Origin: Methanomassiliicoccales archaeon PtaU1.Bin124
GTDB lineage: Archaea > Thermoplasmatota > Thermoplasmata > Methanomassiliicoccales > UBA472
Reading direction: 5' to 3'
NCBI GenBank assembly: GCA_002067865.1
Contig: MVRC01000012.1
Location: forward strand, 166,474-230,473
DNA: 64,000 nt
Part shown: positions 24,103-58,805 of the stretch, one piece after another
Numbering within the stretch: position 1 is the stretch's first letter
How the letters are laid out: every line of letters begins with the position of its first letter
Translations under genes and position numbers: made by a program
Notes under the pieces: model-generated
The model's input: only the letters and a program-made list of their open reading frames with translations
What the model was told of the DNA's origin: nothing
Databases searched by the model: none

Positions 24103-25392
24103 ATGAGCGACAAGGAGACCTTCGACCAGATTCTCATTGAGGCCTCGAGGATGAGGAAGGCCATGGCGGAAGCGCCGGGCCGATACATCAAGGCCAAGGC
24201 GATCATGGCCGAGGCCAGGGAAAAGGTCGACCGGAACCCCAAGAGGGCGCTGAAGCTGATGACCTCCGCCAGGGAGGAGGTGGAGCAGGAGGCCGCAGTC
24301 CTCAGGCGCCTGGCGAACATCCGCCGGCGCAGGACCATCCTGCCCTCCTACCAGGCCATGGACGAGGAGGTCGTCAGGGAGAACCAGTTGGATGAGCTTC
24401 TGCAGAACGGCGATTATCAGAACGCCCAGGCCAACCTCGACTTCCTGGAATCGGCGCTGCACGATGACGTGGAGCAGAGCGTGGAGAACGAGGTGGCGCT
24501 GGAGCTGCCCGAGGCCCAGCTCACGTTCGGGCAGGGCAACACTCTCGTTCTGAAGATCGCCAATCGGACGAAATTCCCCATGCGCATGCTGAAGCTGGCA
24601 GGAAGTTCGGCCCAGGCCCAGGTGATCGTCTTCGATGAGTTCAAGGGCGTGGTCCTGGCCGGGGCCTCCAAGGATGTAAGGGTCAACATCATCCCGAACA
24701 TCGAAGGGGACCTGGTGATCGAACTGGAGGGAATGGTGGAGATGAGCTCCAGGCAGATCCCGGTGAAGAAACATTCGTCGATGAAGGTTAAGCCCGCGCC
24801 GGTCCAGACGATCTATGTGCAGGGGACGCCGGGTCAGATGCCGATCGCCCCGCCGAAGATGGCGCTGAGCGATCCGTTGGACCTGATCGATAAGGGGAGC
24901 GTGGACCAATGGTGCTCGCTCATCACGACCTATTATGAGAGCAAAGCGGCGATGTCACTGGAAGGGCTGGTGCAGAAGGTGTCCGGTTTCCAGACGGCCG
25001 AGGGCTACCGTTCATTGTTCCAGGCGCTGCTGTTGATCGACTATTCCAATCCACAGGCGTGGCATGACTGGTTCTCCTCGCAGGGCATCGTCGGCGAAGA
25101 GATGACCAGGCGCTGCTCCGAGCTGTTCTTCCACCTGGCGTCTGCGAAGGGTGCTTACGAGCTGGAGCTGGACGGGAACGTGGGGTCGTCGAACAACCAG
25201 TACCTCATCAGCGCGCTTCATGTCGCTTCTGGACTGATAGCGCTGGACCGGGAGAGGCGCAAGGACGTCATGAAATGGGAGATCACCGGGACGAGGAATG
25301 GCAAACCATTCCTCCTCACCGTCGAGCGGGCGATAAAGAAGGGAGAGGCGGGGGCGAGGTCCCGTTCCGTCTTCAAGATGGCCCTAAGCTGA
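24103..25392 (+). CDS. Soluble multidomain hypothetical protein (helical N-terminus, Ig-like middle, Pro linker, alpha/beta C-terminus)
   Basis: Host-like codons; LKIANRT...LAGASKDVRVNIIPNIEGDLVIEL Ig pattern; 9-bp convergent overlap with next gene. Confidence 0.75.
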   Translation: MSDKETFDQILIEASRMRKAMAEAPGRYIKAKAIMAEAREKVDRNPKRALKLMTSAREEVEQEAAVLRRLANIRRRRTILPSYQAMDEEVVRENQLDELLQNGDYQNAQANLDFLESALHDDVEQSVENEVALELPEAQLTFGQGNTLVLKIANRTKFPMRMLKLAGSSAQAQVIVFDEFKGVVLAGASKDVRVNIIPNIEGDLVIELEGMVEMSSRQIPVKKHSSMKVKPAPVQTIYVQGTPGQMPIAPPKMALSDPLDLIDKGSVDQWCSLITTYYESKAAMSLEGLVQKVSGFQTAEGYRSLFQALLLIDYSNPQAWHDWFSSQGIVGEEMTRRCSELFFHLASAKGAYELELDGNVGSSNNQYLISALHVASGLIALDRERRKDVMKWEITGTRNGKPFLLTVERAIKKGEAGARSRSVFKMALS

Positions 25393-26181
25393 GTAGATCT
25401 TCTCGATCATCTCTTTCGCCTTCTCGGAACTGGCGCCCCCCAGTCCGGAGCTCGGGTCCACCAGCGAACTGATGGCCCTCCATCCCCTCTGCGGCAACGT
25501 CAACGGCAGCTTCGACAGCACCAGGTTGCATCTGGACGTCGAGAGGGACAGCGGCGGTTCGGTCATGAAGGTGATCGGAACGAGGCCTAGCTGGATGTCG
25601 AGCAGCTTCGACAGCATGTAGCCCAGCTTGATGCGGTCCTTCTGCTCGGTCCCCTTGCACGTGACCACGAACTTCACTTGGGGGTCCTTGACGAAGCCGT
25701 CGACCAGGCGGTTCACGGATTCCTTGGATATGAGGCTCTTGAGCGGGGCGATCTCCTCTTCCAGCGGCACCGGTTCCCAGTTTATGTCGAGCTTAGGTAC
25801 CTCGCCGATGGGGATGCCGTTCTTCTCCTCGTCGGCCACGAGGGCCTTCTCCACGTCGTAATAGGAGAGGCCTTGCGCCAGTGCGCTGCGGGGAATGAGG
25901 AGGGTGTGGGTCAGGATGCCGGTGCGGCCCTTCTCGTCCAGCTTGTTGCGGCGGAAGATCTTGCTGAAGTACACCCCTTCCAGCGCCGGGACCGATGCCA
26001 CCAGCCTTGCTTCAGCGGTGAACACGTCCTCGGCCTTCACGTAGTTAGGGTCCAGCGGGATATAATAGCCGATGAAGCGTTCATACTCATCGGGATTGAT
26101 GTTAGATGACCTGGCCCGCTTCGAGTAACCCTTCTTCGGCACCGGTCCGTAGATGAAATGCTCCACGGAGGTGACGGTCAT
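25384..26181 (-). CDS. GTPase-associated protein, GAP1-N/longin-DENN-like
   Basis: HFIYG..KGY...RS start and DEKGRTGILTHTLLIP motif; ATGA overlap with GTPase stop. Confidence 0.6.
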   Translation of the reverse strand: MTVTSVEHFIYGPVPKKGYSKRARSSNINPDEYERFIGYYIPLDPNYVKAEDVFTAEARLVASVPALEGVYFSKIFRRNKLDEKGRTGILTHTLLIPRSALAQGLSYYDVEKALVADEEKNGIPIGEVPKLDINWEPVPLEEEIAPLKSLISKESVNRLVDGFVKDPQVKFVVTCKGTEQKDRIKLGYMLSKLLDIQLGLVPITFMTEPPLSLSTSRCNLVLSKLPLTLPQRGWRAISSLVDPSSGLGGASSEKAKEMIEKIYSA

Positions 26182-27221
26182 TTGTTCCCCTCGAACTCCT
26201 GCTCGTCCTTGACCTCGTCAGGCATCTTGTCTGCGATCTCACGGAAGCGGTCGATGAAACCCCGGTACTCCTTGTCGGAGTAGTCCAGTTCCGGCTTCCC
26301 CTTGATGGTGACGAGCCTGGGTATGATCTCCCCGTTCTCGTTCTGCTCGGTGTGTATCTCCGAGAAGAAGAACGCCGACTTGTCGAACGAGACGTTCGCC
26401 AGCACACCCCCCTTGGCCAGCGCCATGGTGTCGCCGTAGTACTTGGCCAGGATGGCCTTGGCGTAATCCTCCTTGCTGAACCCCTTCTTGGAGGAAAGGC
26501 CGGCGAACAGGCCCCGCTTCTCCGTCTCCAGCTCGGCGAAGGTCATGGGCCAGTTGTTCTGCTTCTTGATCTCGTTGTCCAGCAGGTCGAACTTCGTGAG
26601 TATGAAGACCGGGTAGATCTTGGCCTTGTCCGGGCTGGTACGGAAGACCTCGGACTTGTACTTCGAGACCGCCGAGATCAAAGTGGCCATGAACACGTCG
26701 TAGTTGCGCATCTCCTTGAAACGCTCGGTCCTCGCCTCAGCGTTGACGCGGCTCAAATCGACCAGGAACACGAGCACGTTGCACTTCAGCAGCTCCCTGA
26801 ACGATTCGCTCAAGGTGTCGAAGTTGAACTCGCCCTTGTAGGTGCCGGATGCTATGCTCTCGCGGTACTGCTCCAGCGAGCGGAGGATGTCGAGGTCCTC
26901 GCCGGCGATATCGTACACGGTGAAGTCCATGATGTCGAACTTCGAGGAGGACTTGTTGCCCAGCGACAGCATCTTCTTGTAACCGTACTTGAACTTGTAC
27001 TTGGACAGGTTCCCTTTCAGCGTGCTGTCCGCCCATTGACCCGACATGAGGTCGGTACGGATGTCACCGAGGATCTTCTCGAACGAAGGGTCGGTGGTGA
27101 AGCGGAACTCGCCTGGACCGACGTTCTTGATGTCATTGGTATATCGGACCTGCGACTCATAGAGCAAGCTGAGGAACACGGTCTTGCCGCAAGACCTGTC
27201 CCCGAATATCGCTACCGGCAT
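26178..27221 (-). CDS. TRAFAC-class GTPase (DO-GTPase2-like)
   Basis: G1 GDRSCGKT, putative G2 Thr (DSTL), G3 DIAGE, G4 TKFD; own TATA ATATTTAAT at 27244-27252, leaderless. Confidence 0.85.
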   Translation of the reverse strand: MPVAIFGDRSCGKTVFLSLLYESQVRYTNDIKNVGPGEFRFTTDPSFEKILGDIRTDLMSGQWADSTLKGNLSKYKFKYGYKKMLSLGNKSSSKFDIMDFTVYDIAGEDLDILRSLEQYRESIASGTYKGEFNFDTLSESFRELLKCNVLVFLVDLSRVNAEARTERFKEMRNYDVFMATLISAVSKYKSEVFRTSPDKAKIYPVFILTKFDLLDNEIKKQNNWPMTFAELETEKRGLFAGLSSKKGFSKEDYAKAILAKYYGDTMALAKGGVLANVSFDKSAFFFSEIHTEQNENGEIIPRLVTIKGKPELDYSDKEYRGFIDRFREIADKMPDEVKDEQEFEGNK

Positions 27222-27318
27222 GCGCTAAGCATCGTATGTTGAGATTAAATATCTTTTCCAGACAATAATTTGCCTTCTCCGATAGAAACTGGGCCGATGT
27301 TTGATTGGAAATGAGCCT

Positions 27319-28083
27319 TTATTTGACTTCAGCTTCCTTTTCGACCTTCGCATGGCGTTCATCGTCCCTGAGCCAGAGCTGGTAGAGGAGGAACGCCAGC
27401 AGGGCGATGGTGAAAGCCAGGCCGATGACGCTGAACATGTTGCCTACGATGATGTCGGTGAGCGGTCTGACGGCTGGGGCCAGGTACCAGGCGGCCAGGC
27501 CCACCGCCGTTGCCATTACGGCCGCCAGACATACGCGCAGCGTGATGAACCGCATGTTCCTGTCGATGGCGATATCCAGTTCTTCCTTGGGGGCGCCCCG
27601 CTTGACCAGGCCCCTCTTCCTCTTCATGGCCTGCTGCCAGGAACGGAAGTAGAGGTCGGCCGCGACCAGCACTATACCGTTGATCATCACAACGCCGGCA
27701 CCGAGATCGTTGGAGAATGTATGGAAGAAGTCCACGTCGCTCTTGGCGATGAGCCAGTTCAGGTCCCCGTAGTACAGCACGGAGAAGATGAACATGAACC
27801 AGGAGAGATAGAGGGACAGCCACAGCGCCCTGGCGTTCCAAAGGCCGTAGACGAGCAGCAGCAGGAAGACCATGGTGAGGATGAACTCGGAGCTGAAGCC
27901 GGTGAAGATGAAGCCGATTACGCCGAGGATGCTGTGCATGGTGCTCTGGTACTTGGCGTTGTGATTGAAGACGATGAGGGAGAGCGCCAGCGTGGTTGAG
28001 ATGACGAAGAATGGGAGCATGGAATTGCTCCACCAGAACACCTTCTTCGGCCGGAGCTTATTGATGACGTCCATGGCGTTCAT
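27319..28083 (-). CDS. Multi-TM membrane protein, last gene of MoxR operon
   Basis: About 7 hydrophobic segments; abuts DUF58 gene. Confidence 0.8.
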   Translation of the reverse strand: MNAMDVINKLRPKKVFWWSNSMLPFFVISTTLALSLIVFNHNAKYQSTMHSILGVIGFIFTGFSSEFILTMVFLLLLVYGLWNARALWLSLYLSWFMFIFSVLYYGDLNWLIAKSDVDFFHTFSNDLGAGVVMINGIVLVAADLYFRSWQQAMKRKRGLVKRGAPKEELDIAIDRNMRFITLRVCLAAVMATAVGLAAWYLAPAVRPLTDIIVGNMFSVIGLAFTIALLAFLLYQLWLRDDERHAKVEKEAEVK

Positions 28084-28084
28084 C

Positions 28085-29374
28085 TCATCCCCTCCTTCCC
28101 ACGCCGAACAGGAGCATGCGCTGCAAATTCTGCCTTTGCGGGTCCCAGGGCACGACGAACGTGCCTTCCTTCCTCAGCTCCTTCAGCTCCGGCAGGTCGT
28201 TCATGTTGGCCATGACCGAGGCCAGGTCGTCCAGCGGGCCCTCCGCCCCGAGGTGGTTGCCGCTCACATGGATGACGATCGAGGTGGCCCTCGGTCCCGA
28301 ATACCGTTTCAGGTCCCGCATCCCGTTCTTGATGTCGTCGACGTTCCTGTCGCGCACGTTCGTGATGACGATGAACAATGGGCTGGTGCCCTGCAGATGC
28401 CCCTTGAGCGAGCGGACCAGGTAGCGCAGGCCGCCGTCCATGAACGACATCTCCATGCGCATGAGAGTACGGCCGATGAGCTCCCTCTGCCTCCTGCCCA
28501 GGTCCGGATAGATGACCTTGTCCTTGTTGAACAGCACCATGCCGACGCTGCAGTTGCGGCCCAGATAATAATCGGCCAGGCCGCTCGCCGCCTGTACGGC
28601 GTACTCGAACGCGTTCTGCACGTTGGTGCCCTGCGCCATTCCCGGTCCGCAGTCCAGCAGGATCCACACGGTCTTCCGTCCTTCCCGCTCATACTCGTTC
28701 ACCATCAGCTTCTGGCCGTTGGAGAGGCGGGCGGTCGCCTTCCAGTTGATGCTCTTGAACATGTCGCCGGGCCGGTACTCCCTGATCTCCTTGAAGTCGG
28801 TCGTCAGGGGGCCGATCCTGCTGATGGATGTGATCGGCAACGGTATGCGGGAGGTGAGGCGGGGGTCGCGCATGCGGCGGGGGTCGATGGAACGGTGGAT
28901 GACCAGCAGATCAGTGGACTTGTCGAAGCGCACCACCATCATCTCCTCCAGGCCCAGCGCGTTGTATGACTCCAGGGTGTGCGCCCCGATCTGGTACACG
29001 CCCCGCTTGGTGCACTTCACCTTGTACGAGAAGGAACGCTGCACCGCCCCGTCCTCCTTGAAGAAGACGTGGAAGTTGCTGCCTTCCACCAGCTGGAAAT
29101 GCCTCGGCAGCTGCTCATGGCAGGTGACCATCCCGGTCCCCTCGCCCACATTGAACTCGGAGGTCACCTCCACCACCTCGTTCACGATCGCCAGCCTCTT
29201 CTGTTCCGGCAGCGATGTCCCGAGCCTCCAGGGCTGTCTTACCTCTACTCCGAGCACGAGGAAGAAGAACGGCACCAGCGATAGCACTATCAGCACTATG
29301 TTGCCGAACAGCAGCCCCGCCAGCAGCAGGGAGAGGAAGATGACGAACTCGGTGGAGACCCTTCTGGACAGCAT
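28085..29374 (-). CDS. DUF58 (Ig + vWA-like) membrane protein
   Basis: FKEIREYRPGD..KSINWKATAR..LMVNEYERE; MIDAS degenerate (DCGPG). Confidence 0.93.
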   Translation of the reverse strand: MLSRRVSTEFVIFLSLLLAGLLFGNIVLIVLSLVPFFFLVLGVEVRQPWRLGTSLPEQKRLAIVNEVVEVTSEFNVGEGTGMVTCHEQLPRHFQLVEGSNFHVFFKEDGAVQRSFSYKVKCTKRGVYQIGAHTLESYNALGLEEMMVVRFDKSTDLLVIHRSIDPRRMRDPRLTSRIPLPITSISRIGPLTTDFKEIREYRPGDMFKSINWKATARLSNGQKLMVNEYEREGRKTVWILLDCGPGMAQGTNVQNAFEYAVQAASGLADYYLGRNCSVGMVLFNKDKVIYPDLGRRQRELIGRTLMRMEMSFMDGGLRYLVRSLKGHLQGTSPLFIVITNVRDRNVDDIKNGMRDLKRYSGPRATSIVIHVSGNHLGAEGPLDDLASVMANMNDLPELKELRKEGTFVVPWDPQRQNLQRMLLFGVGRRG

Positions 29375-29381
29375 CTCAGCA

Positions 29382-30356
29382 TCATTTCCTGACGAAGTCC
29401 TTGGGCACCTCTACCTTGGACATGATCTCGGCCAGCACTCCTTCCGGACGGACATTGGACTCGATCTCGTACTCCATTTTCAGGATTATGCGGTGGCTCA
29501 GCGCATCGACGGCGAACAGCTTCACATCGTCCGGGGTGACGAAGTCCCGGCCCATCATGGCCGCGTGCGCCCTCGACACCTTCAGCAATGCCAGTGCGCC
29601 CCTGGGACTGGAACCGACCTCCACCGCCACATGGTCCCTGGTGGCCCGGACGACCGTGGAGATGTACGTCAGGATGGTCTCGTCCACGTAGATGCCGTTC
29701 TCGACCGTCCTCTGCATCTCGGTGAACTGCTCCTGGGTGACGGCCGATGGCAGCGATGAGACCGGGTCGTCAGAGCGCCACTTGATGCGGCGGCGCAGGA
29801 TCTCGCTCTCCAGATCGACCGATTTCACATATCCAGTGGCTAATTTCAAAAGGAAACGGTCCATCTGCGCCTCGGGCAGAGGGAACGTACCTTCCTGCTC
29901 GATGGGGTTCTGCGTGGCCATGACGAAGTAGGGGTCGGTCAGTTTGTACGTGGTCCCTTCGATCGTGACCTGCCTTTCCTCCATGGCTTCCAGCAAGGCC
30001 GATTGGGTCTTCGGAGGGGAACGGTTGATCTCGTCGGCCAGGAGGATGTTGGTGAAGATCGGCCCGCGTTCAAAGATGAAGTCCGAGGTCTGCGGCCTCC
30101 AGATGCGGTTGCCGAGGATGTCGACCGGCATGATGTCCGGTGTGAACTGCACCCTCTTCCAGCCGCACCCGGTCGCCTTGGCGAAGACCTTCGCCAGCAA
30201 CGTCTTTCCCAGGCCAGGGTTGTCCTCGAACAGCACGTGGCCGTTCGCCAACGCGGCCGCCAGTAGCTTGCGCAGCAACAGTTCCTCTCCCACGAAGATG
30301 CTGCCAGTCGTCTCCAGGATCCGGTTGGCGTTCTGATTGAACTCATTCAGCTCCAC
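29382..30356 (-). CDS. moxR: MoxR-family AAA+ ATPase
   Basis: GHVLFEDNPGLGKT, RVQFTPD, LLADEINR.PPKTQSALLEAM, ATQNPIE, PLPEAQMDRF. Confidence 0.97.
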   Translation of the reverse strand: MELNEFNQNANRILETTGSIFVGEELLLRKLLAAALANGHVLFEDNPGLGKTLLAKVFAKATGCGWKRVQFTPDIMPVDILGNRIWRPQTSDFIFERGPIFTNILLADEINRSPPKTQSALLEAMEERQVTIEGTTYKLTDPYFVMATQNPIEQEGTFPLPEAQMDRFLLKLATGYVKSVDLESEILRRRIKWRSDDPVSSLPSAVTQEQFTEMQRTVENGIYVDETILTYISTVVRATRDHVAVEVGSSPRGALALLKVSRAHAAMMGRDFVTPDDVKLFAVDALSHRIILKMEYEIESNVRPEGVLAEIMSKVEVPKDFVRK

Positions 30357-30366
30357 TTGTTCACCT

Positions 30367-31530
30367 TCAGATCTTCTCTCTCGTCTCCTCGATGTTGTGT
30401 GAAAGGTAATCGGCCTTCATGGCCTTGGCCGCGTTCTGCAGCACGTCGATGACCACGCCGGTCCGCTCCTTCTGATAGGACCGCTGGACGTCCCCCCTGG
30501 TCCAGATGGGATAGAGGTCCTTCGTGTAGGTGGTATAGATGACCAGGCGGTGGATGGCCTCGGATATCTGCTCGTCCTTGACGCCATTCATTTGCATGGT
30601 CTTGACGATCTGGACCAGGAACGGTTCCTTACGCCCATAGACTACGAACTCGTCCACCGCCTCACGCACGGCCTTCATGTCGCCCCGGTCGCGCATGACC
30701 GACTGCACCAGAAGCCCCCAGTCGCCCATGGTCTCCCTGTGGCTCCCCTTCCTCAGCCAGCGGAGGGTGTAGAAGAGGATGACCGCAGCGACGACGATAA
30801 GGACGATCCACTCGGCCATGGTGGCGTTGGTGGCTGCCTGTCCTTCCCAATCGGGCCGTACGATGAAGAAGTAGATCGATATGGCCAGGGCGATGATGCA
30901 CAGAACCACCTTGTGGACGAGGGATGCCATCCACTTTCCCAGCAATGCCACGGTCTCGTTGCTGTGCTTCTCGAACAGCGCCAGTAAAGATATAACGGCC
31001 ACGATGGTCATGGCCACCAGCGGGGCGATGCTCCTGGCCAGGCTGTAATTGTAGTAGAGCAGGAAGAGCGAGACCACGGCCCCGACGGCCACGATGGCCG
31101 CGGCCTGCAGCACGGTCGAGGGGGTCGGCCGCCTCTCCCGCACCATGCTGTCGGCGCTGAGGGTGATGCCGATCAGCAAGGCCGGAATGGCCGCCGCATC
31201 GGCGTTCAGGTTCAGCACCTTCGGAGAACCGACGATGAAGAATGCCAGGAAGACGAAGAGGGACAACGTCGAGAACGCCTCCGAGACCCGGTAGGCCGTC
31301 TCGCCGCCGAAGAACACGCTGAACATGTAGCTGGCGTATGTCATGATGAGGAAGACGACCAGCGGGAACCACAGCTGCTGGAACTCCTTGACGTCCAGGT
31401 CGCTGAAGTAGTTGACCATGATGAACTGCAGCACGACCAGGGCGATGATCAGGTAGAGGGTCAGGAACACTCCCCTCATCCAGAGCGGCCTCGGCCTCTT
31501 CTCTTCATATTCGCGATGGAAAATGTTCAC
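30367..31530 (-). CDS. Multi-TM membrane protein of MoxR operon
   Basis: About 8 TM segments plus cytoplasmic tail; GTG start overlaps upstream TGA (GTGA). Confidence 0.8.
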   Translation of the reverse strand: MNIFHREYEEKRPRPLWMRGVFLTLYLIIALVVLQFIMVNYFSDLDVKEFQQLWFPLVVFLIMTYASYMFSVFFGGETAYRVSEAFSTLSLFVFLAFFIVGSPKVLNLNADAAAIPALLIGITLSADSMVRERRPTPSTVLQAAAIVAVGAVVSLFLLYYNYSLARSIAPLVAMTIVAVISLLALFEKHSNETVALLGKWMASLVHKVVLCIIALAISIYFFIVRPDWEGQAATNATMAEWIVLIVVAAVILFYTLRWLRKGSHRETMGDWGLLVQSVMRDRGDMKAVREAVDEFVVYGRKEPFLVQIVKTMQMNGVKDEQISEAIHRLVIYTTYTKDLYPIWTRGDVQRSYQKERTGVVIDVLQNAAKAMKADYLSHNIEETREKI

Positions 31531-34500
31531 TGCGTCACGTCCTTGAATGCCTTCCAGGCCGTCTCGTACTCCGCCCTGCCGATGGGGTGGTGGCTGTACT
31601 CGGCCAGCTCGAACATGCGCACCAGTTCGTCCAACGACCTCTCGGGCAGCGTCCCCTTCAGACGGTAGTACAGCTCGCGGGCGCACATGCCATCGGTGAT
31701 GCCCGGGTCCTTCTCCTTCCAGATGGCCAATGCCTGCTGGAACAGCGAGACGACCTCCTCGCGGTAATCCACCGCACGCAGGAGCCCCTCGGTCCTTTCC
31801 CCGGCAGTTACGGCGGTGAGCATGTACTCTCCTCTGGGGTAGGCCTTCTCGATGCTCTTCGGTCCATCCTTGAGATCGAAGCTCTCGGAGGTGCCGTCGC
31901 CCAGATCGATGCGGGATGGTCCTGGCTGTCCTTTTACGATGAGCAAGAGCGGGTCGTCCTCCCTCCAGACCAGCGGCATGCCCTCGGCGTTGCCGAGTGA
32001 GAACGATATCTTGTCGCTGGTCATCAGGGCTGGACGGACCGGTTCGGCGGACGCCGATGCTGCCGTTTCCTCCCTCTTTTCCTTCCAGTGGCTGCGCAGG
32101 CCGTATGCTGCGACCGCCCCGATGCCGATGACCACGAACGGCAGAAGGATGAGGTAGTCGAACGGTTTGGCGCTTATGGTTATGGATCTGCTGGTGGATG
32201 CGTAGAGCGCGTTGCCATCATAGTCAAGGGTGGCAGTGTAACTGGTCCCGCGGTCGATAGGGATGATCGTCTTTCCGTTGTTGTCGGTGACGAACGACGT
32301 CCGTCCGGACGGGGTCTCGAACCAGATGGTCTGGTCTCTGAGGGGCTCATTGTTCTCGGCCAGGAGGGTCACCTTGAGAGTTCTTTCATCCTCATCGATC
32401 TCCAGCATGGGTCGGGAGAGAAGTGTCAACGAGATGGACGATACTGGGTTGCCGGCGAACCTCACCTCGCATGAACGTTCACCTGGCAACAGGTCTGAAG
32501 GGACGATGACCGTGCTTGTGAAGCTCCCATCCGTCTCGGTCCAAAATTCGATGGCCGCATCCGGTCCCAGGGCGATCGAGATGTTCCCTATCCCTGGCGT
32601 CATGGGACCGATGGTCAGCGCACCAGACAATGTGTTCATCTCCCCGATCACCAGGACATCGGTGTAGACGGTCAGTTCGCGATCATAGGCCGTCACCGGC
32701 CAATCCAGCATGGCAGTGGACCAGTCGTTGGAACCATAATAGGTAGCATCGATCCAGATCCGTCCACTGCCGGTGAAGTACATTGGCACTAGGGCGATAC
32801 CCTTTTCATCGGTCGTGGCCGAGACCGTTGTGCCAAGATATTGGAGATGAACCTCCTCGCCTGCGATGGGCGTGTGGGTGCCATATTCAAACAAATTGAT
32901 CGGAACCATGACCGTCTTGTTGGTCTCGTACATCGAGTCTCCGGCCTCGAGGTATGATGTGCCCTTCACACGAACGACCGGGTCGCTGTCCGAACCGGCG
33001 AAGAGGTCATTGCCTATGGTCCTTACGATGATATTGAAGTTGCCGAACGGTGCGTCGAGCGGTACGTGGCATCTGACAGCGCATGTACCAGTGGTGATCA
33101 CGCCTGCCCCGATCAGGATGCCGTTACGGTAATCCTTGTCCGGAGAGAGATATGCCAAGGCCCTCAGGCCATTTGCTGAGACGGTGGAGTTGATCAGCAC
33201 ATAGATATTGTACGAAATGCCGCGCGATATCTCATCGTCGAAAAAATACAGCGTTGTGTTGGTGGCATAAGGCACGAAATCCGGCCTGTATAGACCAAAA
33301 TTCACATCCCTAAGAGAATAAACGTCATTGAAAAGACCATAGGAAATTACGTTGCTCGTCCACCCGTCCGGCACATCTATCCAGATCGTGCAGTTGACCA
33401 TGGTCACGTCCGTAGAAAAGGAGAATGCACCGCTCGGACCGGTCGTTCGGGTGGTCTCATAGGTGCCAGTGGTCCCATTGCAGAACATATGGACGACCAC
33501 GCCCTCCATCCCGTTCTCGTTGGCATCGCGGCCGCCGTCATGATCCTTATCATAGTATACGACGCCCCAAGGCTCCGATGCGGAGTTGTCGAGCAAGGGG
33601 ATCTCGATCTCATACGAGCTCATCGTGCCGTCGATGGCCCGCCATTGCTGGACATAGGTCGTTTTCATGGTATTGTTGTCCTCGCAATATCCATGGATGA
33701 AATATTCGCCAGGCAGGACATAGGGGATGTAAAAATAACCCGTTTCATTAGCGATCGCTTCATAACGCTGGGTCGCATTATCTAGGTAGATCCAGGCGTA
33801 AGGTGCATTTTTTTCGTAAAAGTCGCGTACCCCGTCCCTATCTGCATCTATGAAGCAGTAACCAGACAGACGACAGGTCGTCGGAGTAACGACGGGATCG
33901 TCCTGACCTCCATCGTTGCTCCCATTGTCTCCGCTGATCGAATCGGAGGTGGATGTGAGCGGGGTTGGATTTACTGTCATCCAGCCTGTCTCTGGGAAGT
34001 ACACCTCGGCGTAATAGAACTTGTTCGTGATGCTGCCCAGATCGATATACTGGGTGGTGACGTTGGCGTTGATGTGATATCCCTGGACCAATCGGGCCGG
34101 GACGTTGGCCATGCGTGACAGCAGAACGAACGCCGTCGCGAACGTCAGTGAGTTGCCATCGGCATTTCCGTTCAGGAATGCGGTCAGCAATTGGTCGCCG
34201 GTCAGGTTCTGGCCGTTCTTGTTCTTCGAAGAATAAGTATGTTCCGAGATGTTCTGACAGATCTTCTTGACCATCTGGTAGGGGTCCTCCACTCTGCCGA
34301 TCGCGTCCAAACGGTAGGTCAAGGAATATTGCAGGTCTTCAGGCACGTCCATGTAGCCATCCAGATCGATCAGTGTGAGATCTTTCAGCAGCCTTTCATC
34401 GAACTCCTGGACCACATAATGAAGGAAGATGCTGCCATTCACCCTGCCATTGGCCCCCACCATGTCATACATATCAGATTGCAGCAGCGCTCCAGTGGTG

Positions 34501-45084: not shown

Positions 45085-46111
45085 TCACTTTCTCTTCAGG
45101 GGCTGAACGACCACATTGGGGAGCTGCGAGAGCGAGGAGAAGATGAACGGTCCCTTTCTTACCAGTGGGAGATGGATGTGCCTGACGATGTGATCGGAGC
45201 ACCAGCAGAGGCAGAGGCCGAGGGTGATGCCCCAGGCCAGGAGCGATAACGTTCCGATGATGCCCGATATCGAATGGAAGTAGGTCAGGAGCAGGATGAA
45301 CGCCAGCGTGAACGAAGGCATGGTCGCTGCGTGACGGGAGAAGAAATGGAAGAGGCTGGTCAACGATCTCGATCTGAGCTGCGTGGTCCACCTTCCGATC
45401 TGCAGCAGGACGATGCCTGCGCCGACCGAGCCCAGGAGGAACAGGGCGTATTCGAACGGAGTTGCGGGAGAGAACGATGCCGGGCCGATGAGGACCGCCG
45501 CCGCGGACATCATGCCGGCGCCCATAATCAACGTGAGCGGACCGCTCTCGGATATCTGTAACAGGGGGGAGTGGGAATAGGCGAAGCCGATGTAAAGGAG
45601 AGGCTGGGAGACCAGTGCCGCCCGGACCTGCCATGGCAACGAGGGAAGGACCGTTCCGGCCAGACCCATCAGGACGATCGGGATGAACCGGTACTTCGGC
45701 ATGGAGATGACGATCAGGACGAACGCTAATTCCGCTACGAGGAGAAGCGGCAGGAACCACAGCACCTCGGACATGATGCCGATGGAAGAGGGATCTCCGA
45801 GGACCAGTGCGTTTTGTAATTGATCCGCTCCAAGTCCGTGGGTCGCGATGACGACGGTGCAGAGCGCCAGGTAAGGGATGAGCGTCGATATGGCGATCTT
45901 GCCGATGGTCAGCAGAGGTTCTTCCCTTGCCTTCCGCTCATCGAACAGGTGGCCGATGGCGAGAAGGATGACAGGGAAGGTGAGATAGGAGAGGAAGGAT
46001 GGAGCGCCGCCTACGAGAACATCAAGGGCTGCCAGCGCTGCGGCGGCGGCCAGGGCTGCTTCTGCGGCATAGGGCTTCAGAGGGCTTACGCTCCATTGCT
46101 TCTTTCTTCAT
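45085..46111 (-). pseudogene. Multi-TM membrane protein with an apparent +1 frameshift just after its start
   Basis: Frame of 45085-45774 stays open and hydrophobic for about 110 more codons without a standard start; ATG at 46111 with GGGGTGA upstream is one base out of frame. Confidence 0.5.
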
Positions 46112-46222
46112 AATCACCCCGTGAGGGGGAAGGGGGTTTCGGGGCATAGGAGGAAGGAAACTGCTTCCGATCTCGGGGGGAGGAATGAATGCCAAATGCC
46201 CCGTTCATTGGGAGTTCTGAGA

Positions 46223-46597
46223 TTATACTGGCTTGCAGGAGACCGAGCCGCTGCCATCCAGCATCATGCCCAGCTCGAGGTCGTACGATGCGTTCTCGCA
46301 CGTTCCATCGACCATCTCGATGCGCGCTGTGAGCTTGTTGCGCTCGAAGACGATCTGGGCGTTCTTCACTTTCGATTTGTACATTGAGATGCGCTTTCCT
46401 GCCTGGGTCAGCTTGCGTTCGCAGCAGGTGATGAGTCCGGCATCCTCCAGGAGTTTGATCTTCCTGTAACAGGCGGCGATGGGGATCCCGAGCTTCTCGC
46501 TGAGGTCGAAGGCAGACTTCGGCTTGCCCATGGTGGCGAGAAGGATCTTTGCCGCATATTCTTCTGTCAAGAGTTGTGAGGTTTCTAAAGCTTGCAT
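46223..46597 (-). CDS. ArsR-like winged-helix regulator
   Basis: KPKSAFDLSEKLGIPIAACYRKIKLLEDAGLI...GKRISMYKS; AGGTGG RBS before ATG 46597. Confidence 0.85.
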   Translation of the reverse strand: MQALETSQLLTEEYAAKILLATMGKPKSAFDLSEKLGIPIAACYRKIKLLEDAGLITCCERKLTQAGKRISMYKSKVKNAQIVFERNKLTARIEMVDGTCENASYDLELGMMLDGSGSVSCKPV

Positions 46598-46963
46598 GAT
46601 ACTCCACCTATTGGGACTTCTTAGGTTATCATCGCCGATGAGGGTATATGAAGAGGCCGATGTGATTATCACTTTTGATTTGGTTAGAAACGACGGGCCA
46701 GATGTGTTATCAGGCGGTGGAAATAACGATTCTTGATGCTAGATATCGAAATGTGGAACGATGGCGGAATGCGATTTGAAAAATGGTGAGAATAATTAAT
46801 GATCATTAAAGAGAACAATCGATTTCTGAATAATATGCAATGAGAGATGTCAGATTATTAGTTATTCCTTTTTAATCAAATGGAAGGATAATATTCAAAT
46901 ACTTACTGGGTAAATGATACCTACAAGCCAGGGATTAGCAACCTGACTAGAGGTGAGAATTTC

Positions 46964-47008
46964 ATGGCATTCAAGGACAAGAAGAAGGACGACAAGAAGA
47001 AGAAATAA
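46964..47008 (+). CDS. 14-aa Lys/Asp micro-protein MAFKDKKKDDKKKK
   Basis: GAGGTGA RBS 7 nt upstream; AAG/GAC codons amid AT-rich DNA; followed by a terminator. Confidence 0.65.
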   Translation: MAFKDKKKDDKKKK

Positions 47009-47020
47009 GTTCACAATTAC

Positions 47021-47049
47021 GTGCTGATCTATTCAGCACTCCTTTTTTT
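47021..47049 (+). terminator. Hairpin plus T-tract terminator
   Basis: GTGCTGA-TCTAT-TCAGCAC then TCC and T7. Confidence 0.65.
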
Positions 47050-47119
47050 AAAAAAATGTCTGGAAATAGTACAATCAAAATCCAATTAATTATATTGTAA
47101 TTAAAACATGGCGTTTTAG

Positions 47120-48229
47120 ATGAAAATATTAATGGTCACAGATAAATATTTACCAAATGTGGGGGGTGTAATAAATACAATTAGAGAAATTTCCGAGAAT
47201 TTGGTCGGCACGGGAAATGAGGTAACAATTGTATGTTTCGGAAATCAAAATAAGACCGATTTTATCAACGGAGTAAAAATTTTTTTTATAAAATCCCAAT
47301 TGTCAAAATATTTTTTGGGTTTAAGTTTTCCAATATTAGTTAAAATCAATTCCATAATCAAAGAAGAGAATCCAGATATCGTTCACATTCATGGTTATCA
47401 TACTTTATTATCTCTATCTGCATTAATTCCTTTAAAAACTGGAATAAATATTGTTTTCAGTCCTCATTATCACAAAGTTGGCCACACTCCCTTAAATAAT
47501 CTGCTTCACCATGGATATAAATATATTGGATATGTATTATTTAAAAAATCAAGAATAATATTTACTGGATCCCATTATGAAAAAGAATTGGTGACAACAA
47601 ATTTTCCGAATTTTCAACGCAAGGTAGTTTTGGTACCACTTGGTGTGAAAAAAATTATTATCTCCGAAAAAAAACAAACAAATTTGGATCGAAAAAGGAT
47701 TAATCTATTATTTATCGGAAATTTGATGGAATATAAAGGTATTCAATATATCATCAAATCACTTTCATATTTGATTAAAAAGGGATATTGTCCACATCTG
47801 ACCATAATTGGAAATGGGTCATATAAGAGTGATTTAGTTAGCTTAATTGAGGTAGAAAATGTTGGGAGCAACATAAATTTTTTTGAAAAGTTAAGCGATC
47901 ATGAAATTGAATTAAAAATGTTAGACAGTGATATGTTATTATTGCTTTCGAAAGCTGAAGCATATGGATTGGTCGTAGCTGAATCACTTGGATTAGGAAC
48001 ACCTACAATTGTTAGTAATGCAAATGCGTTGAAAGAGTTCACTGAAATTCCAGGTTGTTTTGGTATAGATATCCCGCCCCGAATTGATGATTTGGCCGAT
48101 TTGATCATCAATACGTTTAATTATTCTGGTCCAGTTGGTCCTGCTGATAAAACAAAAATTCGAACCTGGGACGAAGTCGCCTCAAATTACTTTTTTATAT
48201 ACGAAAGAATAAAATTTGGTGCAAGATGA
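47120..48229 (+). CDS. GT4 family glycosyltransferase
   Basis: P.VGG, PDIVHIH, GNLMEYKG, EAYGLVVAE (EX7E). Confidence 0.93.
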   Translation: MKILMVTDKYLPNVGGVINTIREISENLVGTGNEVTIVCFGNQNKTDFINGVKIFFIKSQLSKYFLGLSFPILVKINSIIKEENPDIVHIHGYHTLLSLSALIPLKTGINIVFSPHYHKVGHTPLNNLLHHGYKYIGYVLFKKSRIIFTGSHYEKELVTTNFPNFQRKVVLVPLGVKKIIISEKKQTNLDRKRINLLFIGNLMEYKGIQYIIKSLSYLIKKGYCPHLTIIGNGSYKSDLVSLIEVENVGSNINFFEKLSDHEIELKMLDSDMLLLLSKAEAYGLVVAESLGLGTPTIVSNANALKEFTEIPGCFGIDIPPRIDDLADLIINTFNYSGPVGPADKTKIRTWDEVASNYFFIYERIKFGAR

Positions 48230-49824
48230 ATATGGTATTTTCTAGAAAGCCATTGAAATTTTTGACAATTTTGATGTTAATACAGATATCATTATTTTTA
48301 TGGATAATCTCCAGCGTATCTATCCATACATTTTCTCCCGACTCTTTTTATTATGTTACACAAATGCCGATAATATTCTGGGTAGGTTTAGCAATTTGGG
48401 CAATTACTTTATCATTCAAGATAAAATGGACAAATTTATTTTCAAAAAATATTAGTCACATTATCGATTTATGTTTATTACTTCTAATAATTTTGTTTTT
48501 GTTTGGTTTACCATGTTTTATTTATGATAACTATCGATTTTCAGATAGCCTTAAAGTTATTAATGATGTTAATAATCTGATAAGCTCTGGTCAGTTTATT
48601 TTATCTGGGGAGTTAAATTATCTTTCATCTGCACCAGGTTTTCATCTTTTTTCTGCGAATATTTCTATTATAACCGATACTTCTGTATTTGATATTGCAA
48701 AATATTATCCGATCTTCATATTTGTGTTAATCTGTATTGTACTTTATTCAATAGCAATATTTTTTTCGGCTAAATACGCGATATTTGCCCCAATCATGTT
48801 TCTAGGTCTCTCTTGGACTCAGGAATACCATTTTGCCCCACAATCTTTTGCCATAATATTATATTCATTTTTTATTTATGTTATCATTAAAAATTGGAAT
48901 GAAGATTCATCTTCATACAAATATATATTAATCATGTTAATAATGATATTTTCAATTACTATAAGCCACTTGGGAACTCCTTTATTTGTCATACTAAATA
49001 TTTTATTCATTATTATTTTATTTTCCATTTCTAAAAAAAGGTCTCATAATCTTACATTGAAAAGTGTTCCTTCGTTCAATCTATTAATATTAAATATTTG
49101 CGTTTGGGTATCTTGGTTAATTTATATATCTGATGGAATAATGAGTTTATTTATCAATTTAGTCACAAATTCAATTAACAATTTGCTCTTGGGCGAAGTA
49201 TCTCTCTCGAATAGTATAGCTTCGAATCCGACTTATGATTTCGTTGTCGTTTCCGATATTCGCATTGTTATTGGTATTATACAAATTCTACTCGGATTCG
49301 CAATGTTATTTTTCTTTAGAAAAAATATCAAGTTGGCAACGATTTTAGGCGGTATTTTCCTTGGATCCTTTTCTTTTGCAATATTGTCGCCCTCCTTAGG
49401 AGGACTTTATTTTGGTCGATCATTTATTTTTTCTTCAATTATTGTATCAATAATGTTCATTGCCGCAATCAAATATTTTCCCCGTCCCTCTACAAAAATA
49501 TTTTTTAATATGATTATTTGTTTTATAATAATTACATTATTCTTAATCCCCGTTACTCATTATGCGGGAGATGGATTGGAATTTATTTCCGATTCGCAGC
49601 TCCAAGAAAAAATGTATGCAGAATGCCTCAATATTTCATTGTACCACCCTACAACATATGAAATATATAATAATATATATGATAATAAATATTATTCATA
49701 TTCTACGGCATTTTATAATTATTACTATCAACGTATGTCCGCTGGAGATATTTATAATAAATATTACATTTTAATGAATCATGACATTATTTATAATAAT
49801 AATGAATTTAGAATATATGATTAG
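48226..49824 (+). CDS. Polytopic membrane protein (GT-C or polymerase-like)
   Basis: About 13 TM segments; PGFH, PQSFA, ISH motifs; in glycan island. Confidence 0.7.
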   Translation: MNMVFSRKPLKFLTILMLIQISLFLWIISSVSIHTFSPDSFYYVTQMPIIFWVGLAIWAITLSFKIKWTNLFSKNISHIIDLCLLLLIILFLFGLPCFIYDNYRFSDSLKVINDVNNLISSGQFILSGELNYLSSAPGFHLFSANISIITDTSVFDIAKYYPIFIFVLICIVLYSIAIFFSAKYAIFAPIMFLGLSWTQEYHFAPQSFAIILYSFFIYVIIKNWNEDSSSYKYILIMLIMIFSITISHLGTPLFVILNILFIIILFSISKKRSHNLTLKSVPSFNLLILNICVWVSWLIYISDGIMSLFINLVTNSINNLLLGEVSLSNSIASNPTYDFVVVSDIRIVIGIIQILLGFAMLFFFRKNIKLATILGGIFLGSFSFAILSPSLGGLYFGRSFIFSSIIVSIMFIAAIKYFPRPSTKIFFNMIICFIIITLFLIPVTHYAGDGLEFISDSQLQEKMYAECLNISLYHPTTYEIYNNIYDNKYYSYSTAFYNYYYQRMSAGDIYNKYYILMNHDIIYNNNEFRIYD

Positions 49825-49892
49825 TTGATATTATTTAACGAATTATAACACAATTTAAATTAATTATTCTGTACCGAAACAAACAAACTATT

Positions 49893-51095
49893 TTGAATAA
49901 AGTCAATATTTACTTAAAAAGGTTCGATAGTTTGAAAATTCTAATCGTGTGTTCAACATTGGATTTAAAATTCAAACTTGGATGCACCCCATCATGGTGG
50001 CAATTGATCAAGGCATTAAATGAAAAAGGAAACGAAATATTGGTATTGCCATATCTTGGAACGTGCATGGACACCATATGGTGGCGTTCGTATTCGAATC
50101 CCACTTTTTTTGAAAGTATAATTTATTACAACTTATTAAATAAATTACCCGATTTTAAGACCTATCAACAGAAGAGTAAAAAATTTTTAAAAATTTTTAT
50201 TCCATATATCAATTTCAAATGGAAAAATAAAATATGGGAAATAGTTAATCAAGAAAAAGATATAAATTTGGTATTCTTTATTAATATACCATTGGACCAA
50301 ATTACTGATATCCCATCAAAAATTAAGGAAGAATTTGGAATCCCCTCGTTTTATTTGGAGGGGGACATGCCTACGATTCTTCCAAAATATTCCGTTGGAC
50401 GTGGTTTTAAATTTAATTATTATCAAAATGCCGACCTATCTGTCTTTGATATTTTTTATTCCAATTCTATTGGGGTTACAAATGATATCAAAAGTATGGG
50501 GGCAAAAAAAATTGAATCTTTACATTATGCGGTGGATCCTCAATTCTTTCAACCATTGCCGACAAGGAAAAAATTTGATATTTCGTTTTTTGGGTACGGG
50601 AGCCAATATCGTGAAGATTGGATGGAAAAATTAATAACTAAACCTTCAAATGAAATGTGCAGATACAAATTTGCAGTGGCTGGGGGTGGATTCGGGATCT
50701 CTTTGGGAAATGCGGATTTGGTAGGGGATATTTCATTTGACAATTATCGTTTATTCTGTTCTCAAAGTAGGATCAATCTCAATATCACAAGATGGTCTCA
50801 CACAAATGTTTACGGATCTTCAACGGCCAGGATTTTTGAATTGGCAGGATTTGGTTGTTGTATTGTTTCCCAACCATACAATGGGATGGATGAATGGTTC
50901 GACCCTGGTCGCGAAATTTTTATGATAAAAAACGATGAAGAAATCAATGAATTATATAATTGGTTATTGGACGATGAAGAAATTCGTATTAAATCAGGCA
51001 TGGCTGCAAGAGAAAGGGTACTTAAAAATCATACTTATGGTCATAGGGCCCAACAAATAATCAATAATTTTAATGACCTAAAGGATAAAACATGA
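49893..51095 (+). CDS. CgeB-like GT-B glycosyltransferase
   Basis: YAVDP..F.P, DISFFG, INLNITR, RIFELAGFG, HTYGHRA. Confidence 0.85.
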   Translation: MNKVNIYLKRFDSLKILIVCSTLDLKFKLGCTPSWWQLIKALNEKGNEILVLPYLGTCMDTIWWRSYSNPTFFESIIYYNLLNKLPDFKTYQQKSKKFLKIFIPYINFKWKNKIWEIVNQEKDINLVFFINIPLDQITDIPSKIKEEFGIPSFYLEGDMPTILPKYSVGRGFKFNYYQNADLSVFDIFYSNSIGVTNDIKSMGAKKIESLHYAVDPQFFQPLPTRKKFDISFFGYGSQYREDWMEKLITKPSNEMCRYKFAVAGGGFGISLGNADLVGDISFDNYRLFCSQSRINLNITRWSHTNVYGSSTARIFELAGFGCCIVSQPYNGMDEWFDPGREIFMIKNDEEINELYNWLLDDEEIRIKSGMAARERVLKNHTYGHRAQQIINNFNDLKDKT

Positions 51096-51532
51096 AGGTA
51101 GGATTAATTGGAGCTAGTGGTGGTCATCTTACTGAATTATTACAATTGGCTCATTCATTGGACCACTGCACTTTATTCATAATAACATATAAAACCAATC
51201 GCTTTATTAATTTGCCAATACCTCAATTCTATGTTCCAGATATCGGCCAAAAGGGTAACTTTATTTCTGCCTCATTCAATATTTTTAAAATTCTGATTAG
51301 TGAAAGACCAGATTATGTCATAAGCACCGGATCGGAGATTGCTATTCCCTCTTTTTTAATCTGCAAGAGTCTAGGTATTAAAACAATTTTTATTGAATCA
51401 TGGTGTCGCGTTAATTGCAAATCTGGCACTGGCAGAATTGTTTATTATTTTTCTGATTATTTCTTTGTCCAGTGGGAAGAGTTGATTAAAAAATATGGTA
51501 AAAAAGCTCAATATTTCGGAGGTCTCATATGA
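51092..51532 (+). CDS. Alg14/PssD/CpsF-like glycosyltransferase subunit
   Basis: ASGGHLTEL, RPDYVISTG, FIES, FFVQWE. Confidence 0.92.
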   Translation: MKVGLIGASGGHLTELLQLAHSLDHCTLFIITYKTNRFINLPIPQFYVPDIGQKGNFISASFNIFKILISERPDYVISTGSEIAIPSFLICKSLGIKTIFIESWCRVNCKSGTGRIVYYFSDYFFVQWEELIKKYGKKAQYFGGLI

Positions 51533-51999
51533 TCTTGGTGACTGTAGGTACCATCGGATTTGATCGTTTAATCAATTATTGCGATTCCATTTCCGATTTT
51601 TTTAATGAACCCATGCTGCTACAAATCGGTAACTCAACAACTATTCCGAAAAAATGTCCATATTTTAATATGATAGAATACGACAAAATGATGGGGGTCA
51701 TCAAAGAGTCTCGATTAGTAATTACTCACGGCGGTGCTGGAACAATTATGGATTGTATATTGCTGAACAAACCAATAATTGCCGTTCCCAGATTGAAAAA
51801 ATTTGGGGAAGTGATAGACGATCATCAGATTGAAATGTTAAATCAAATTAGGAAAAAGTATCAACTAGATGTAGTAACAAATATTACAGATTTGATGGAT
51901 TTGATAATAATGAAACGTCCAGAATCTCATTGCGGAACATACGAAATAAATTCTAAATTATCAATGAAAATATCGGAAATAATTAAAGGTGTGCGATAA
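51529..51999 (+). CDS. Alg13/PssE/CpsG-like glycosyltransferase subunit
   Basis: MILVTVGT..FDRL, ITHGGAGT, VPR...GEVIDDHQ. Confidence 0.92.
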   Translation: MILVTVGTIGFDRLINYCDSISDFFNEPMLLQIGNSTTIPKKCPYFNMIEYDKMMGVIKESRLVITHGGAGTIMDCILLNKPIIAVPRLKKFGEVIDDHQIEMLNQIRKKYQLDVVTNITDLMDLIIMKRPESHCGTYEINSKLSMKISEIIKGVR

Positions 52000-53107: not shown

Positions 53108-53213
53108 GATATCCCAACAAATAAAATATTTATTAATATTTACATTCTCTGATATGCCATTCTTGACAGAAAATCTTCTTCATATTATAATATTAGTTAT
53201 TAAATATTGACAA

Positions 53214-54506: not shown

Positions 54507-54525
54507 TTGTATCGTATAAAAATCT

Positions 54526-55971: not shown

Positions 55972-55974
55972 TTA

Positions 55975-57669: not shown

Positions 57670-57738
57670 AGTTTTTGAAGAACTAGATACATATAATTCT
57701 TTTTTGTAGGATCGAACACAACTCTCATAATAAGAAAA

Positions 57739-58692: not shown

Positions 58693-58805
58693 TGCCTAAC
58701 AATCGACTCACAAAATTGACGAACGTAACGAACCAACACCAGTTTTTTAATCCCTTCAGATAATTATTCCGGATCATTCATAAAGTATATCATCCACCAT
58801 CGTGA

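Follow-up and report, generated by a model that had tools for sequence, protein, structure and literature searches.

An archaeal GTPase cassette that appears to be a divergent, shortened member of the DO-GTPase/GAP1 systems

The locus described here raises the question of whether a GTPase gene and its translationally coupled neighbour form a new kind of archaeal switch or a variant of a system that is already known, and what such a switch would be used for. It lies in a stretch of 64,000 nucleotides (nt), hereafter the window, from Methanomassiliicoccales archaeon PtaU1.Bin124 (GCA_002067865.1, contig MVRC01000012.1, positions 166,474-230,473 of the forward strand). The locus comprises three real genes, two co-directional and one convergent, which encode a GTPase of 347 amino acids (aa), a partner protein of 265 aa and a third component of 429 aa, here called X429. 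A preliminary description of this DNA had seen in it a minimal, effector-less two-gene module and an undescribed system, and we came to a different view on both points. The two core proteins appear to be remote homologs of the DO-GTPase/GAP1 pair described computationally in 2020 by Kaur et al. (eLife, PMC7159879). Since profile comparison ties both of them to the canonical DO-GTPase/GAP1-N2 pair, the cassette would be a divergent, shortened member of these GTPase-centric systems and not a wholly new one. We consider it rather probable that the cassette, consisting of the GTPase, a short GAP1 and the fast-evolving X429, is a reduced archaeal member of this group that works as an accessory, GTP-gated conflict or stress switch.

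Relationship to the DO-GTPase/GAP1 pairs

The GTPase gene (26178..27221, minus strand) and the partner gene (25384..26181, minus strand) were confirmed where they had been placed before, and the stop codon of the former shares a 4-nt ATGA overlap with the start codon of the latter (GGG AAC AAA TGA / ATG ACC GTC, 26178-26181). The GTPase translation contains the G1 motif GDRSCGKT, the Walker B/G3 motif DIAGE and the G4 motif TKFD, as described earlier, and ends in a conserved beta/alpha extension (residues about 250-347). All homologs in the alignment begin with MPVAI.GDR, so the start codon appears to be correct. Residues G7, R9, G12, K13 and K210-F211-D212 are invariant in 21 relatives and D104 and E108 nearly invariant; with its motifs intact the protein is predicted to be catalytically competent. 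Its G3 motif has a glutamate where Ras-type GTPases have a glutamine, and a glutamate after DxxG is a hallmark of DO-GTPases in the account of Kaur et al. (PMC7159879). The sole Pfam family that recurred among the 21 relatives was DO-GTPase2 (PF19993), with matches in 12 of them at E <= 0.01 (best E 1.6e-6). Foldseek neighbours of the AlphaFold2 model of the GTPase (predicted local distance difference test, pLDDT, 83.0; predicted template modelling score, pTM, 0.86) were YcjX, G-alpha-s, SR-beta, Arf and MglA, which puts the predicted structure on the Arf/G-alpha/MglA side of the TRAFAC GTPases. These results agree with the TRAFAC assignment made in the preliminary description. A sequence search of the PDB gave no meaningful match for the GTPase, with best E values of 0.32-6.7 across the partner, the GTPase and X429.

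To compare the pair with canonical systems we used archaeal GAP1 genes. The GAP1-N2 profile PF20013 matched 14 of 401 Thermoplasmata genomes (a tally that includes one unpublished genome), and eight of the 14 belong to one family of low guanine-cytosine (GC) content, in which 8 of 43 genomes were matched. The GAP1 open reading frames (ORFs) of this family are 531-606 aa long, three of the eight score above the PF20013 cut-off, and all eight genes (L119-L126) have a GTPase gene directly upstream. Aligned with hhalign, the partner family (A3, 48 sequences) matched the eight archaeal GAP1s with a probability of 96.3 and an E value of 1.6e-9 over 192 columns. The aligned span runs from residue 3 to 207 of the partner and from 4 to 209 of GAP1, and includes the D-x-GR-x-G...H strand; the preliminary description had taken the partner for a GAP1-N-type protein on the strength of a strand similar to the R.G...THTLLI strand of bacterial GAP1-N proteins, and this proposal is borne out by the alignment. 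The GTPase family (A2) matched the eight GAP1-adjacent GTPases with a probability of 98.3 and an E value of 1.4e-14 over 259 columns. Controls were weak, with E 0.6 for the partner against the GAP1-adjacent GTPases and E 0.098 for the partner against reversed GAP1. Because the profile-profile matches are strong and the controls weak, both core proteins are best read as remote homologs of the canonical archaeal pair.

Other searches with the partner point in the same direction. Of the ESM Atlas clusters that bear a family, each of the ten best has GAP1-N2, N1 or M (scores 0.95-0.93 for ranks 1-4). GAP1-N2 was also the commonest Pfam family among 56 members of the partner family, with 4 matches, all sub-threshold (best 17.3 against 24 bits), and three of these, at E <= 0.05, cover residues about 19-126, that is, the longin part discussed below. 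The PF20013 search of the window genome gave no match, and a third homolog search (A4) listed no more than close relatives from Thermoplasmata, none with a Pfam label, and stopped short of bacterial GAP1. By these comparisons the partner would be a short GAP1 with the N and M parts and without the C part.

The cassette shares further features with the GAP1-N2 systems of Kaur et al. (PF19993, PF20013, PF20014), as they are presented in PMC7159879. Both have a TRAFAC GTPase with a Walker-B glutamate, a GAP1-type partner gene immediately downstream, a third, variable and non-enzymatic component, and patchy, mobile-looking neighbourhoods, and a second paralogous GTPase occurs in most relatives of the cassette. 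The differences are equally clear. The window partner has 265 aa instead of about 560 and lacks the GAP1-C part of the canonical N, M and C arrangement, through which Kaur et al. propose that effectors are deployed. The window GTPase has no zinc ribbon or transmembrane segment and stands alone, whereas two paralogous GTPases are given for 38% of the described systems, a frequent but not obligatory feature. The accompanying protein is an FNIII-repeat protein in N2 systems and GASH in N1 systems (PMC7159879), and X429 was neither in the comparisons made. Both window proteins also stay under the curated Pfam cut-offs.

A second GTPase-family ORF was counted in 69 of 80 related loci (see below), mostly in degenerate form, and in 6 of the 11 close loci. 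Among second copies of at least 250 aa, the P-loop lysine is present in only 13 of 65, as against 76 of 76 main GTPases, all of which also retain DxxGE.

Regarding expression, a block GAAAAGATATTTAA upstream of the GTPase gene (27245..27258, minus strand) consists of an A-run resembling the transcription factor B recognition element (BRE) and a TATA box ATATTTAA at 27252-27245. The preliminary description had placed this box 22 nt before the ATG and proposed a leaderless transcript; the box is present, but the spacing to the ATG at 27221 is 23 nt. The block GAAAAnATATTTAA is kept at constant spacing from the GTPase ATG in 11/11 related loci. Because this distance is fixed while the adjacent DNA varies, it is reasonable to infer an archaeal BRE/TATA promoter from which the GTPase mRNA would be made leaderless or nearly so.

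Predicted fold of the partner protein

The partner translation carries the segments HFIYGP..KKGY and DEKGRTGILTHTLLIP, both noted earlier. Among 48-56 diverse members of the family H92 is invariant, and conservation reaches at least 90% at G18, Y19, S25, P42, R86, R183 and W234. AlphaFold2, run on a 15-sequence alignment, gave a model with pLDDT 85.6 and pTM 0.87, in which a longin-type domain (residues about 1-125) is followed by an alpha/beta, DENN-like domain (about 130-265). The predicted order of elements in the first domain is strands 2-14 and 18-24, helix 30-37, strands 57-64, 69-78 and 88-97, and helices 98-102 and 107-121. G18-Y19 precede strand 2 of the model, and R86 and H92 lie on the beta4-beta5 hairpin. 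An all-helical domain of the dDENN kind is absent from the model, which ends in a single helix (253-264).

We compared the model with 48,161 chains using VIA-align. The best full-length matches were TagF (9t0n, Z 9.3, 222 residues aligned), DENND10 (Z 8.1, 232) and DENND1A (Z 8.1, 220), values that are modestly above the Z 7-8 that is commonly the best score for unmatched models. After these three the scores fall to Z 5.6 and lower, and the chains are mainly longin/Roadblock domains with some helicase and other alpha/beta folds; SRX and MglB appear at Z 3.9-4.3. Foldseek returned the Lst4 longin domain, TagF, FLCN-FNIP2, DENND1B-Rab35, C9orf72-SMCR8 and GATOR1, the first four with probabilities of 0.72-1.0 (TagF: probability 1.00, template modelling score, TM, 0.48). 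Across the two methods the longin matches of the N-domain were Lst4, FNIP2, a Loki longin protein and VAMP7. The preliminary description had proposed a longin/DENN-like partner and had named AlphaFold and Foldseek as the way to check it; the longin N-domain was indeed predicted and whole-length matches to DENND10, DENND1A and TagF were found, but the C-terminal half alone fitted the DENN domain of folliculin (Z 4.4-4.5) no better than a helicase RecA-like domain (Z 4.6).

At the sequence level the picture is different. No match to a uDENN, DENN or dDENN profile was obtained with the partner (Pfam, E <= 10), with 53 relatives or with 56 alignment members, and a search of solved structures by sequence found no relative of the partner. 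The longin fold of the N-domain is therefore well supported as a prediction and the DENN-like label for the two-domain arrangement moderately supported, and the likeness to DENN proteins is to be read as a structural resemblance at the prediction level only.

Several known regulators resemble the partner in part. As predicted for the partner, a longin domain is followed by an alpha/beta domain in DENN modules (DENND1-Rab35, DENND10, FLCN/FNIP, C9orf72/SMCR8), and the Asgard operon with Roadblock, Rab-like GTPase and DENN genes also has a DENN gene beside that of its cognate small-GTPase-like protein. Unlike these, the partner lacks dDENN and any profile similarity, accompanies a DO-GTPase instead of Rab, Rag or Arf, and is encoded by a member of Thermoplasmata and not of Asgard archaea. 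TagF, a type VI secretion regulator (PDB 9t0n, 6iz8, 2qnu), is the best structural match to the whole model; however, it has no sequence similarity to the partner, and the locus showed no genes for type VI secretion. TagF is not known to have a GTPase partner. MglA/MglB and SR-beta/SRX resemble the pair in combining, as far as the models go, a GTPase of the Arf/G-alpha/MglA neighbourhood with a longin/Roadblock-type platform, but they belong to other sequence families, and the partner is distinguished by a second, DENN-like domain.

In the literature, DENN domains were confined to the eukaryotic DENN module in the treatment of Zhang et al. (2012, PMC3521125), and Liu et al. later reported DENN operons in Asgard archaea (10.1101/2020.10.19.343400). 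Archaeal cases are 'a few' in the main text of Kaur et al., where the words longin and DENN have 0 occurrences each (PMC7159879). A 2026 preprint mentions, as unpublished observations, that profilin-longin-like domains often occur with GTPases in systems against selfish elements (10.64898/2026.10.19.760177). A search of the literature by title and abstract found no description of GAP1 as longin/DENN-like. Some short Thermoplasmata GAP1s may already be present in the source dataset of PMC7159879; what is added here is the profile-profile link to the canonical archaeal GAP1 systems and the X429 component.

If the resemblance were due to common descent, the N and M parts of GAP1 would be true homologs of the longin and central DENN domains. 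DENN-type regulation would then have arisen in prokaryotic conflict-type GTPase systems, with TagF as an offshoot, would be widespread in non-Asgard archaea and would predate Rab/DENN and Rag/folliculin. We put this forward tentatively, as a possibility that we would not expect to hold. Under it the origin of DENN-type regulators would shift from eukaryotes and Asgard archaea to prokaryotic switch systems, these regulators would also be linked to TagF, and the pair of 347 and 265 aa would be the simplest system in which to measure ancestral guanine nucleotide exchange factor (GEF) or GTPase-activating protein (GAP) chemistry. The DO-GTPase/GAP1 systems are known from comparative genomics only, and the fold or activity of GAP1 is not described in the literature consulted. 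The window locus is their smallest natural version, with one GTPase that appears to be active, a 265-aa partner and one accessory protein. For the partner, a longin-DENN arrangement like that by which Rab, Rag and Arf are regulated in eukaryotes is predicted with good confidence. Moreover, the GTPase and the partner are small and soluble and are suited to direct biochemistry.

The third component, distribution and probable role

The X429 gene (24103..25392, plus strand) converges on the partner gene, and in the window the two stop codons overlap by 9 nt. From the alignment, X429 has a helical N-region, a middle part (about 130-230) whose periodicity is strand-like, and a C-domain (about 255-429) that carries the invariant motifs W..WF..G..G..T.RC and DG.VGSSN. 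The middle part is a probable Ig-like beta-sandwich, which we treat as a lead only; the ESM Atlas gave weak leads to beta-sandwiches of the CARDB/NPCBM type (TM 0.30-0.37). An identity as an FNIII-repeat or GASH protein found no support in the Pfam or Atlas comparisons, which gave weak leads only. We also considered whether X429 could be a detached GAP1-C part, and this was unsupported (hhalign against the C-half of GAP1, E 0.066).

The order GTPase, partner, convergent X429 is kept in 11/11 other genomes, and the 3' ends of the partner and X429 genes overlap by 4-9 nt in 10/10 loci. Across the 11 genomes, identity to the window proteins is 70-79% for the GTPase and 66-74% for the partner but 30-42% for X429, so X429 evolves much faster than the core pair. 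A GTPase paralog of 539 aa (P0040; BLASTP 2e-10, family hidden Markov model (HMM) 6e-14) carries a C-terminal extension homologous to the C-domain of X429. P0040 is encoded on metagenome contig L117, and there and on the sister contig L118 X429-like modules stand in one same-strand operon with two or three GTPases and the partner. In the wider Thermoplasmata another convergent protein, fam1, occupies the position of X429 (52 loci). Homology between fam1 and X429 was unsupported (hhalign E 0.24; HMM of fam1 against P0040, E 0.04). The core pair is thus constant and the third member replaceable, and a constant core with an exchangeable third member is also the pattern of the systems presented by Kaur et al. 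(PMC7159879).

A partner profile found the gene in 12 of 201 genomes of the order. Within the window's family 11 of 46 genomes were matched, the remaining families gave 0 of 155, and neither of the two further genomes of its genus had a match. At the level of the class, 57 of the 401 genomes sampled were matched; the matches are concentrated in two families (21 of 59 and 21 of 33) and patchy within one genus (16 of 43), and nearly all of the 57 carry one copy. With the GTPase alignment as query, a scan of species-representative genomes confirmed 112 loci, of which we kept 80. Nearly all are labelled Thermoplasmata, Thermoplasmatota or Methanobacteriota, the rest being one metagenome-assembled genome (MAG) of Desulfurococcaceae and one labelled 'bacterium'. 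Among named relatives Methanomassiliicoccales/Methanomassiliicoccaceae come closest, and most of the wider set belongs to Thermoplasmata, so the pair lies outside Asgard archaea, as had been suspected. The preliminary description had made conserved adjacency in other genomes a test of the pair: in 76 of the 80 loci the GTPase gene is immediately followed by a partner-family ORF, and the remaining 4 end at a contig edge, so that chance does not account for the pairing.

The surroundings of the cassette are less stable. Its flanks in the window (Na+/H+ antiporter, the 254-aa membrane protein TM254, DUF58 and MoxR genes) have no match in the 11 related loci. Compared with a complete genome from its genus, the window is syntenic at the DNA level up to the Na+/H+ antiporter gene; the matches end at ~23976, beside X429, and from there to ~46.3 kb of the window (~22 kb) no DNA match to that genome was found; the cassette therefore stands at the edge of a large variable region. 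One related copy (L019/L041) has its GTPase split by a frame change and reading into the partner as one 612-aa ORF, with X429 in three pieces, and is probably decaying. A search of 1.84 billion representatives with the partner profile yielded 75 proteins at E <= 0.001, 54 of them at <= 1e-10. No named Pfam family covered the partner domain in 53 of these relatives, and 8 of the 53 are fusions, to TIR (P0058, P0103), to HerA/DUF87-like modules (P0051, P0091, P0118) or to AAA+ (P0092, P0097, P0111). In one Thermoplasmata MAG (L043:2474-4342) the GTPase is followed by a partner domain with an N-terminal HerA/DUF87-like ATPase.

A soil Thermoplasmata sister cassette (L063-L100) consists of a membrane protein, GTPase, partner, degenerate GTPase and convergent orphan; the membrane protein is upstream in 26 loci and the flanks are partly conserved. 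The literature searched gave no published account of this cassette. It shares with the window the GTPase and partner families (HMM E values in the 1e-98 and 1e-60 range), their order and a convergent gene at the 3' side. The window, by contrast, has neither a degenerate second GTPase nor a membrane protein upstream, and the convergent genes are not detectably related.

How such a cassette would work can be sketched as follows. The GTPase with its Walker-B glutamate would be expressed from the conserved, probably leaderless promoter, and the partner, with its N2 and M parts, would be made by translational coupling to it. The partner may dock on the GTPase through its longin face, as longin/Roadblock platforms do on Arf/G-alpha/MglA-like GTPases, and may tune the nucleotide cycle, with R86 and H92 as candidate catalytic or switch-contacting residues and G18-Y19 as further candidates. 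In eukaryotic longin GAPs the arginine finger has beside it a GP motif that precedes strand 2 (PMC12290439). By analogy R86/H92 and G18-Y19 of the partner recall the arginine finger and the GP motif; we take this as no more than a lead to a putative GEF or GAP activity. The GTP/GDP state could then be passed on to X429, which would be the variable sensing or output part, its C-domain working with the GTPase. A complex prediction of the GTPase and partner with GTP and Mg, run without controls, gave a score of 0.26, under the mark of 0.32, and is used neither for nor against binding.

The role is most likely that of an accessory conflict or stress-response switch and not a core cellular function. 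We favour such a switch because the cassette is patchy, synteny breaks at it, one copy is decaying, and partner-domain relatives are fused to TIR and HerA-like modules. A number of observations weigh against the favoured reading. Pfam gives no match for the partner at a cut-off as loose as E <= 10, the window GTPase matches DO-GTPase2 alone and under the 27-bit cut-off (20.4 bits, E 4.4e-4), and the four locus proteins searched had no match in PADLOC or NCBIfam. GAP1-C is missing from the partner, and the window genome (99.8% complete) has a single GTPase of the family, a second paralog not being found. X429 belongs to no Pfam family and has no sequence relative among solved structures, and no effector enzyme (nuclease, TIR, pore) is recognisable in the window cassette. 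The viral contigs and plasmids searched contained no relative, and the partly conserved flanks in soil Thermoplasmata fit vertical, possibly housekeeping, inheritance there. To these come, for the fold, the modest height of the VIA scores and the indifferent match of the C-half.

These points leave room for a cell-biological switch, since there is no recognisable effector, PADLOC match or viral or plasmid copy and the soil flanks are partly conserved. The pair would then be an analogue of Rab/DENN, Rag/folliculin or MglA/MglB acting at a membrane or the cytoskeleton, with the partner as GEF or GAP, X429 as the controlled output and no immune role. The fold family of the partner, which is that of eukaryotic and Asgard GTPase regulators, the lack of a toxin-like effector in the cassette, the single copy in nearly all matched genomes and the membrane protein upstream in the soil loci all fit this. 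A core process would not be lost so often, however, and single genera already show a patchy occurrence (16 of 43 in one, 0 of 2 in the window's own). Together with the decaying copy, the synteny break and the TIR and HerA-like fusions, this makes a cell-biological switch rather unlikely in our view. The two-gene reading, in which X429 is merely a conserved neighbour of an effector-less GTPase and regulator, draws on the fact that just the GTPase and the partner are co-directional and translationally coupled, and that fam1 replaces X429 in 52 wider Thermoplasmata loci, leaving the pair as the constant core. We judge it improbable. X429 is kept in 11/11 genomes with overlapping 3' ends while four tested flank genes are not conserved, its C-domain is fused to a GTPase paralog, X429-like modules join same-strand operons, and the 52 further loci also have a convergent gene at the same position. 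Finally, the partner might be a generic two-domain alpha/beta protein, for example a GTPase chaperone or assembly factor, whose DENN likeness is convergent and not homology. No sequence profile links it to uDENN, DENN, dDENN or solved structures, it lacks a dDENN-like helical domain and the Z values are moderate. Two independent aligners nevertheless rank DENN-module and longin proteins at the top over both domains, and homology to GAP1, a dedicated GTPase partner, stands at E 1.6e-9, so that we give convergence very little weight. Should the favoured conflict or stress switch prove to be an immune one, it would be an archaeal example whose sensing or output component, X429, belongs to no known family.

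Neighbouring genes and related cassettes

Directly upstream of the cassette (27319-31686, minus strand) lie four genes in one direction, which encode a MoxR ATPase (AAA_3), a DUF58 protein and membrane proteins of 254 and 439 aa. None of TM254, DUF58 and MoxR adjoins the cassette in the 11 related genomes, and their adjacency in the window looks coincidental. Further along, at 46000-58700, the window contains an island of low GC content (0.29-0.39, compared with about 0.58 in the rest) with a surface-glycan cluster that encodes several glycosyltransferases of the GT4, GT2 and GT28 types, a flippase-type polysaccharide-biosynthesis protein and an asparagine-synthase-like protein. This is probably a variable glycosylation island acquired horizontally.

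The canonical archaeal systems of the low-GC family (L119-L126) have GTPases of 470-600 aa with long N-terminal extensions and GAP1-N2 proteins of canonical size (531-595 aa), and further large ORFs come after the GAP1-N2 gene. In close relatives of the window cassette (L034-L039, L032, L033, L040, L041) a small, proline-rich double-zinc-ribbon protein (Pfam DZR) is encoded just upstream of the main GTPase, and in six of these relatives a second, degenerate GTPase is present as well, for example with the P-loop GVEGCGRT. The DZR protein is absent from the window cassette, a weak match standing alone ~8 kb away. Zinc ribbons are fused to most DO-GTPases according to Kaur et al. (PMC7159879), and in the close relatives the zinc ribbon would be a separate gene. 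The X429 homolog of L013/L039 is in two ORF pieces. In L118 (4-12796) a Ser/Thr protein kinase, a HEAT/ARM-repeat kinase protein and an X429-like protein of 632 aa precede the cassette and a DDE transposase follows it.

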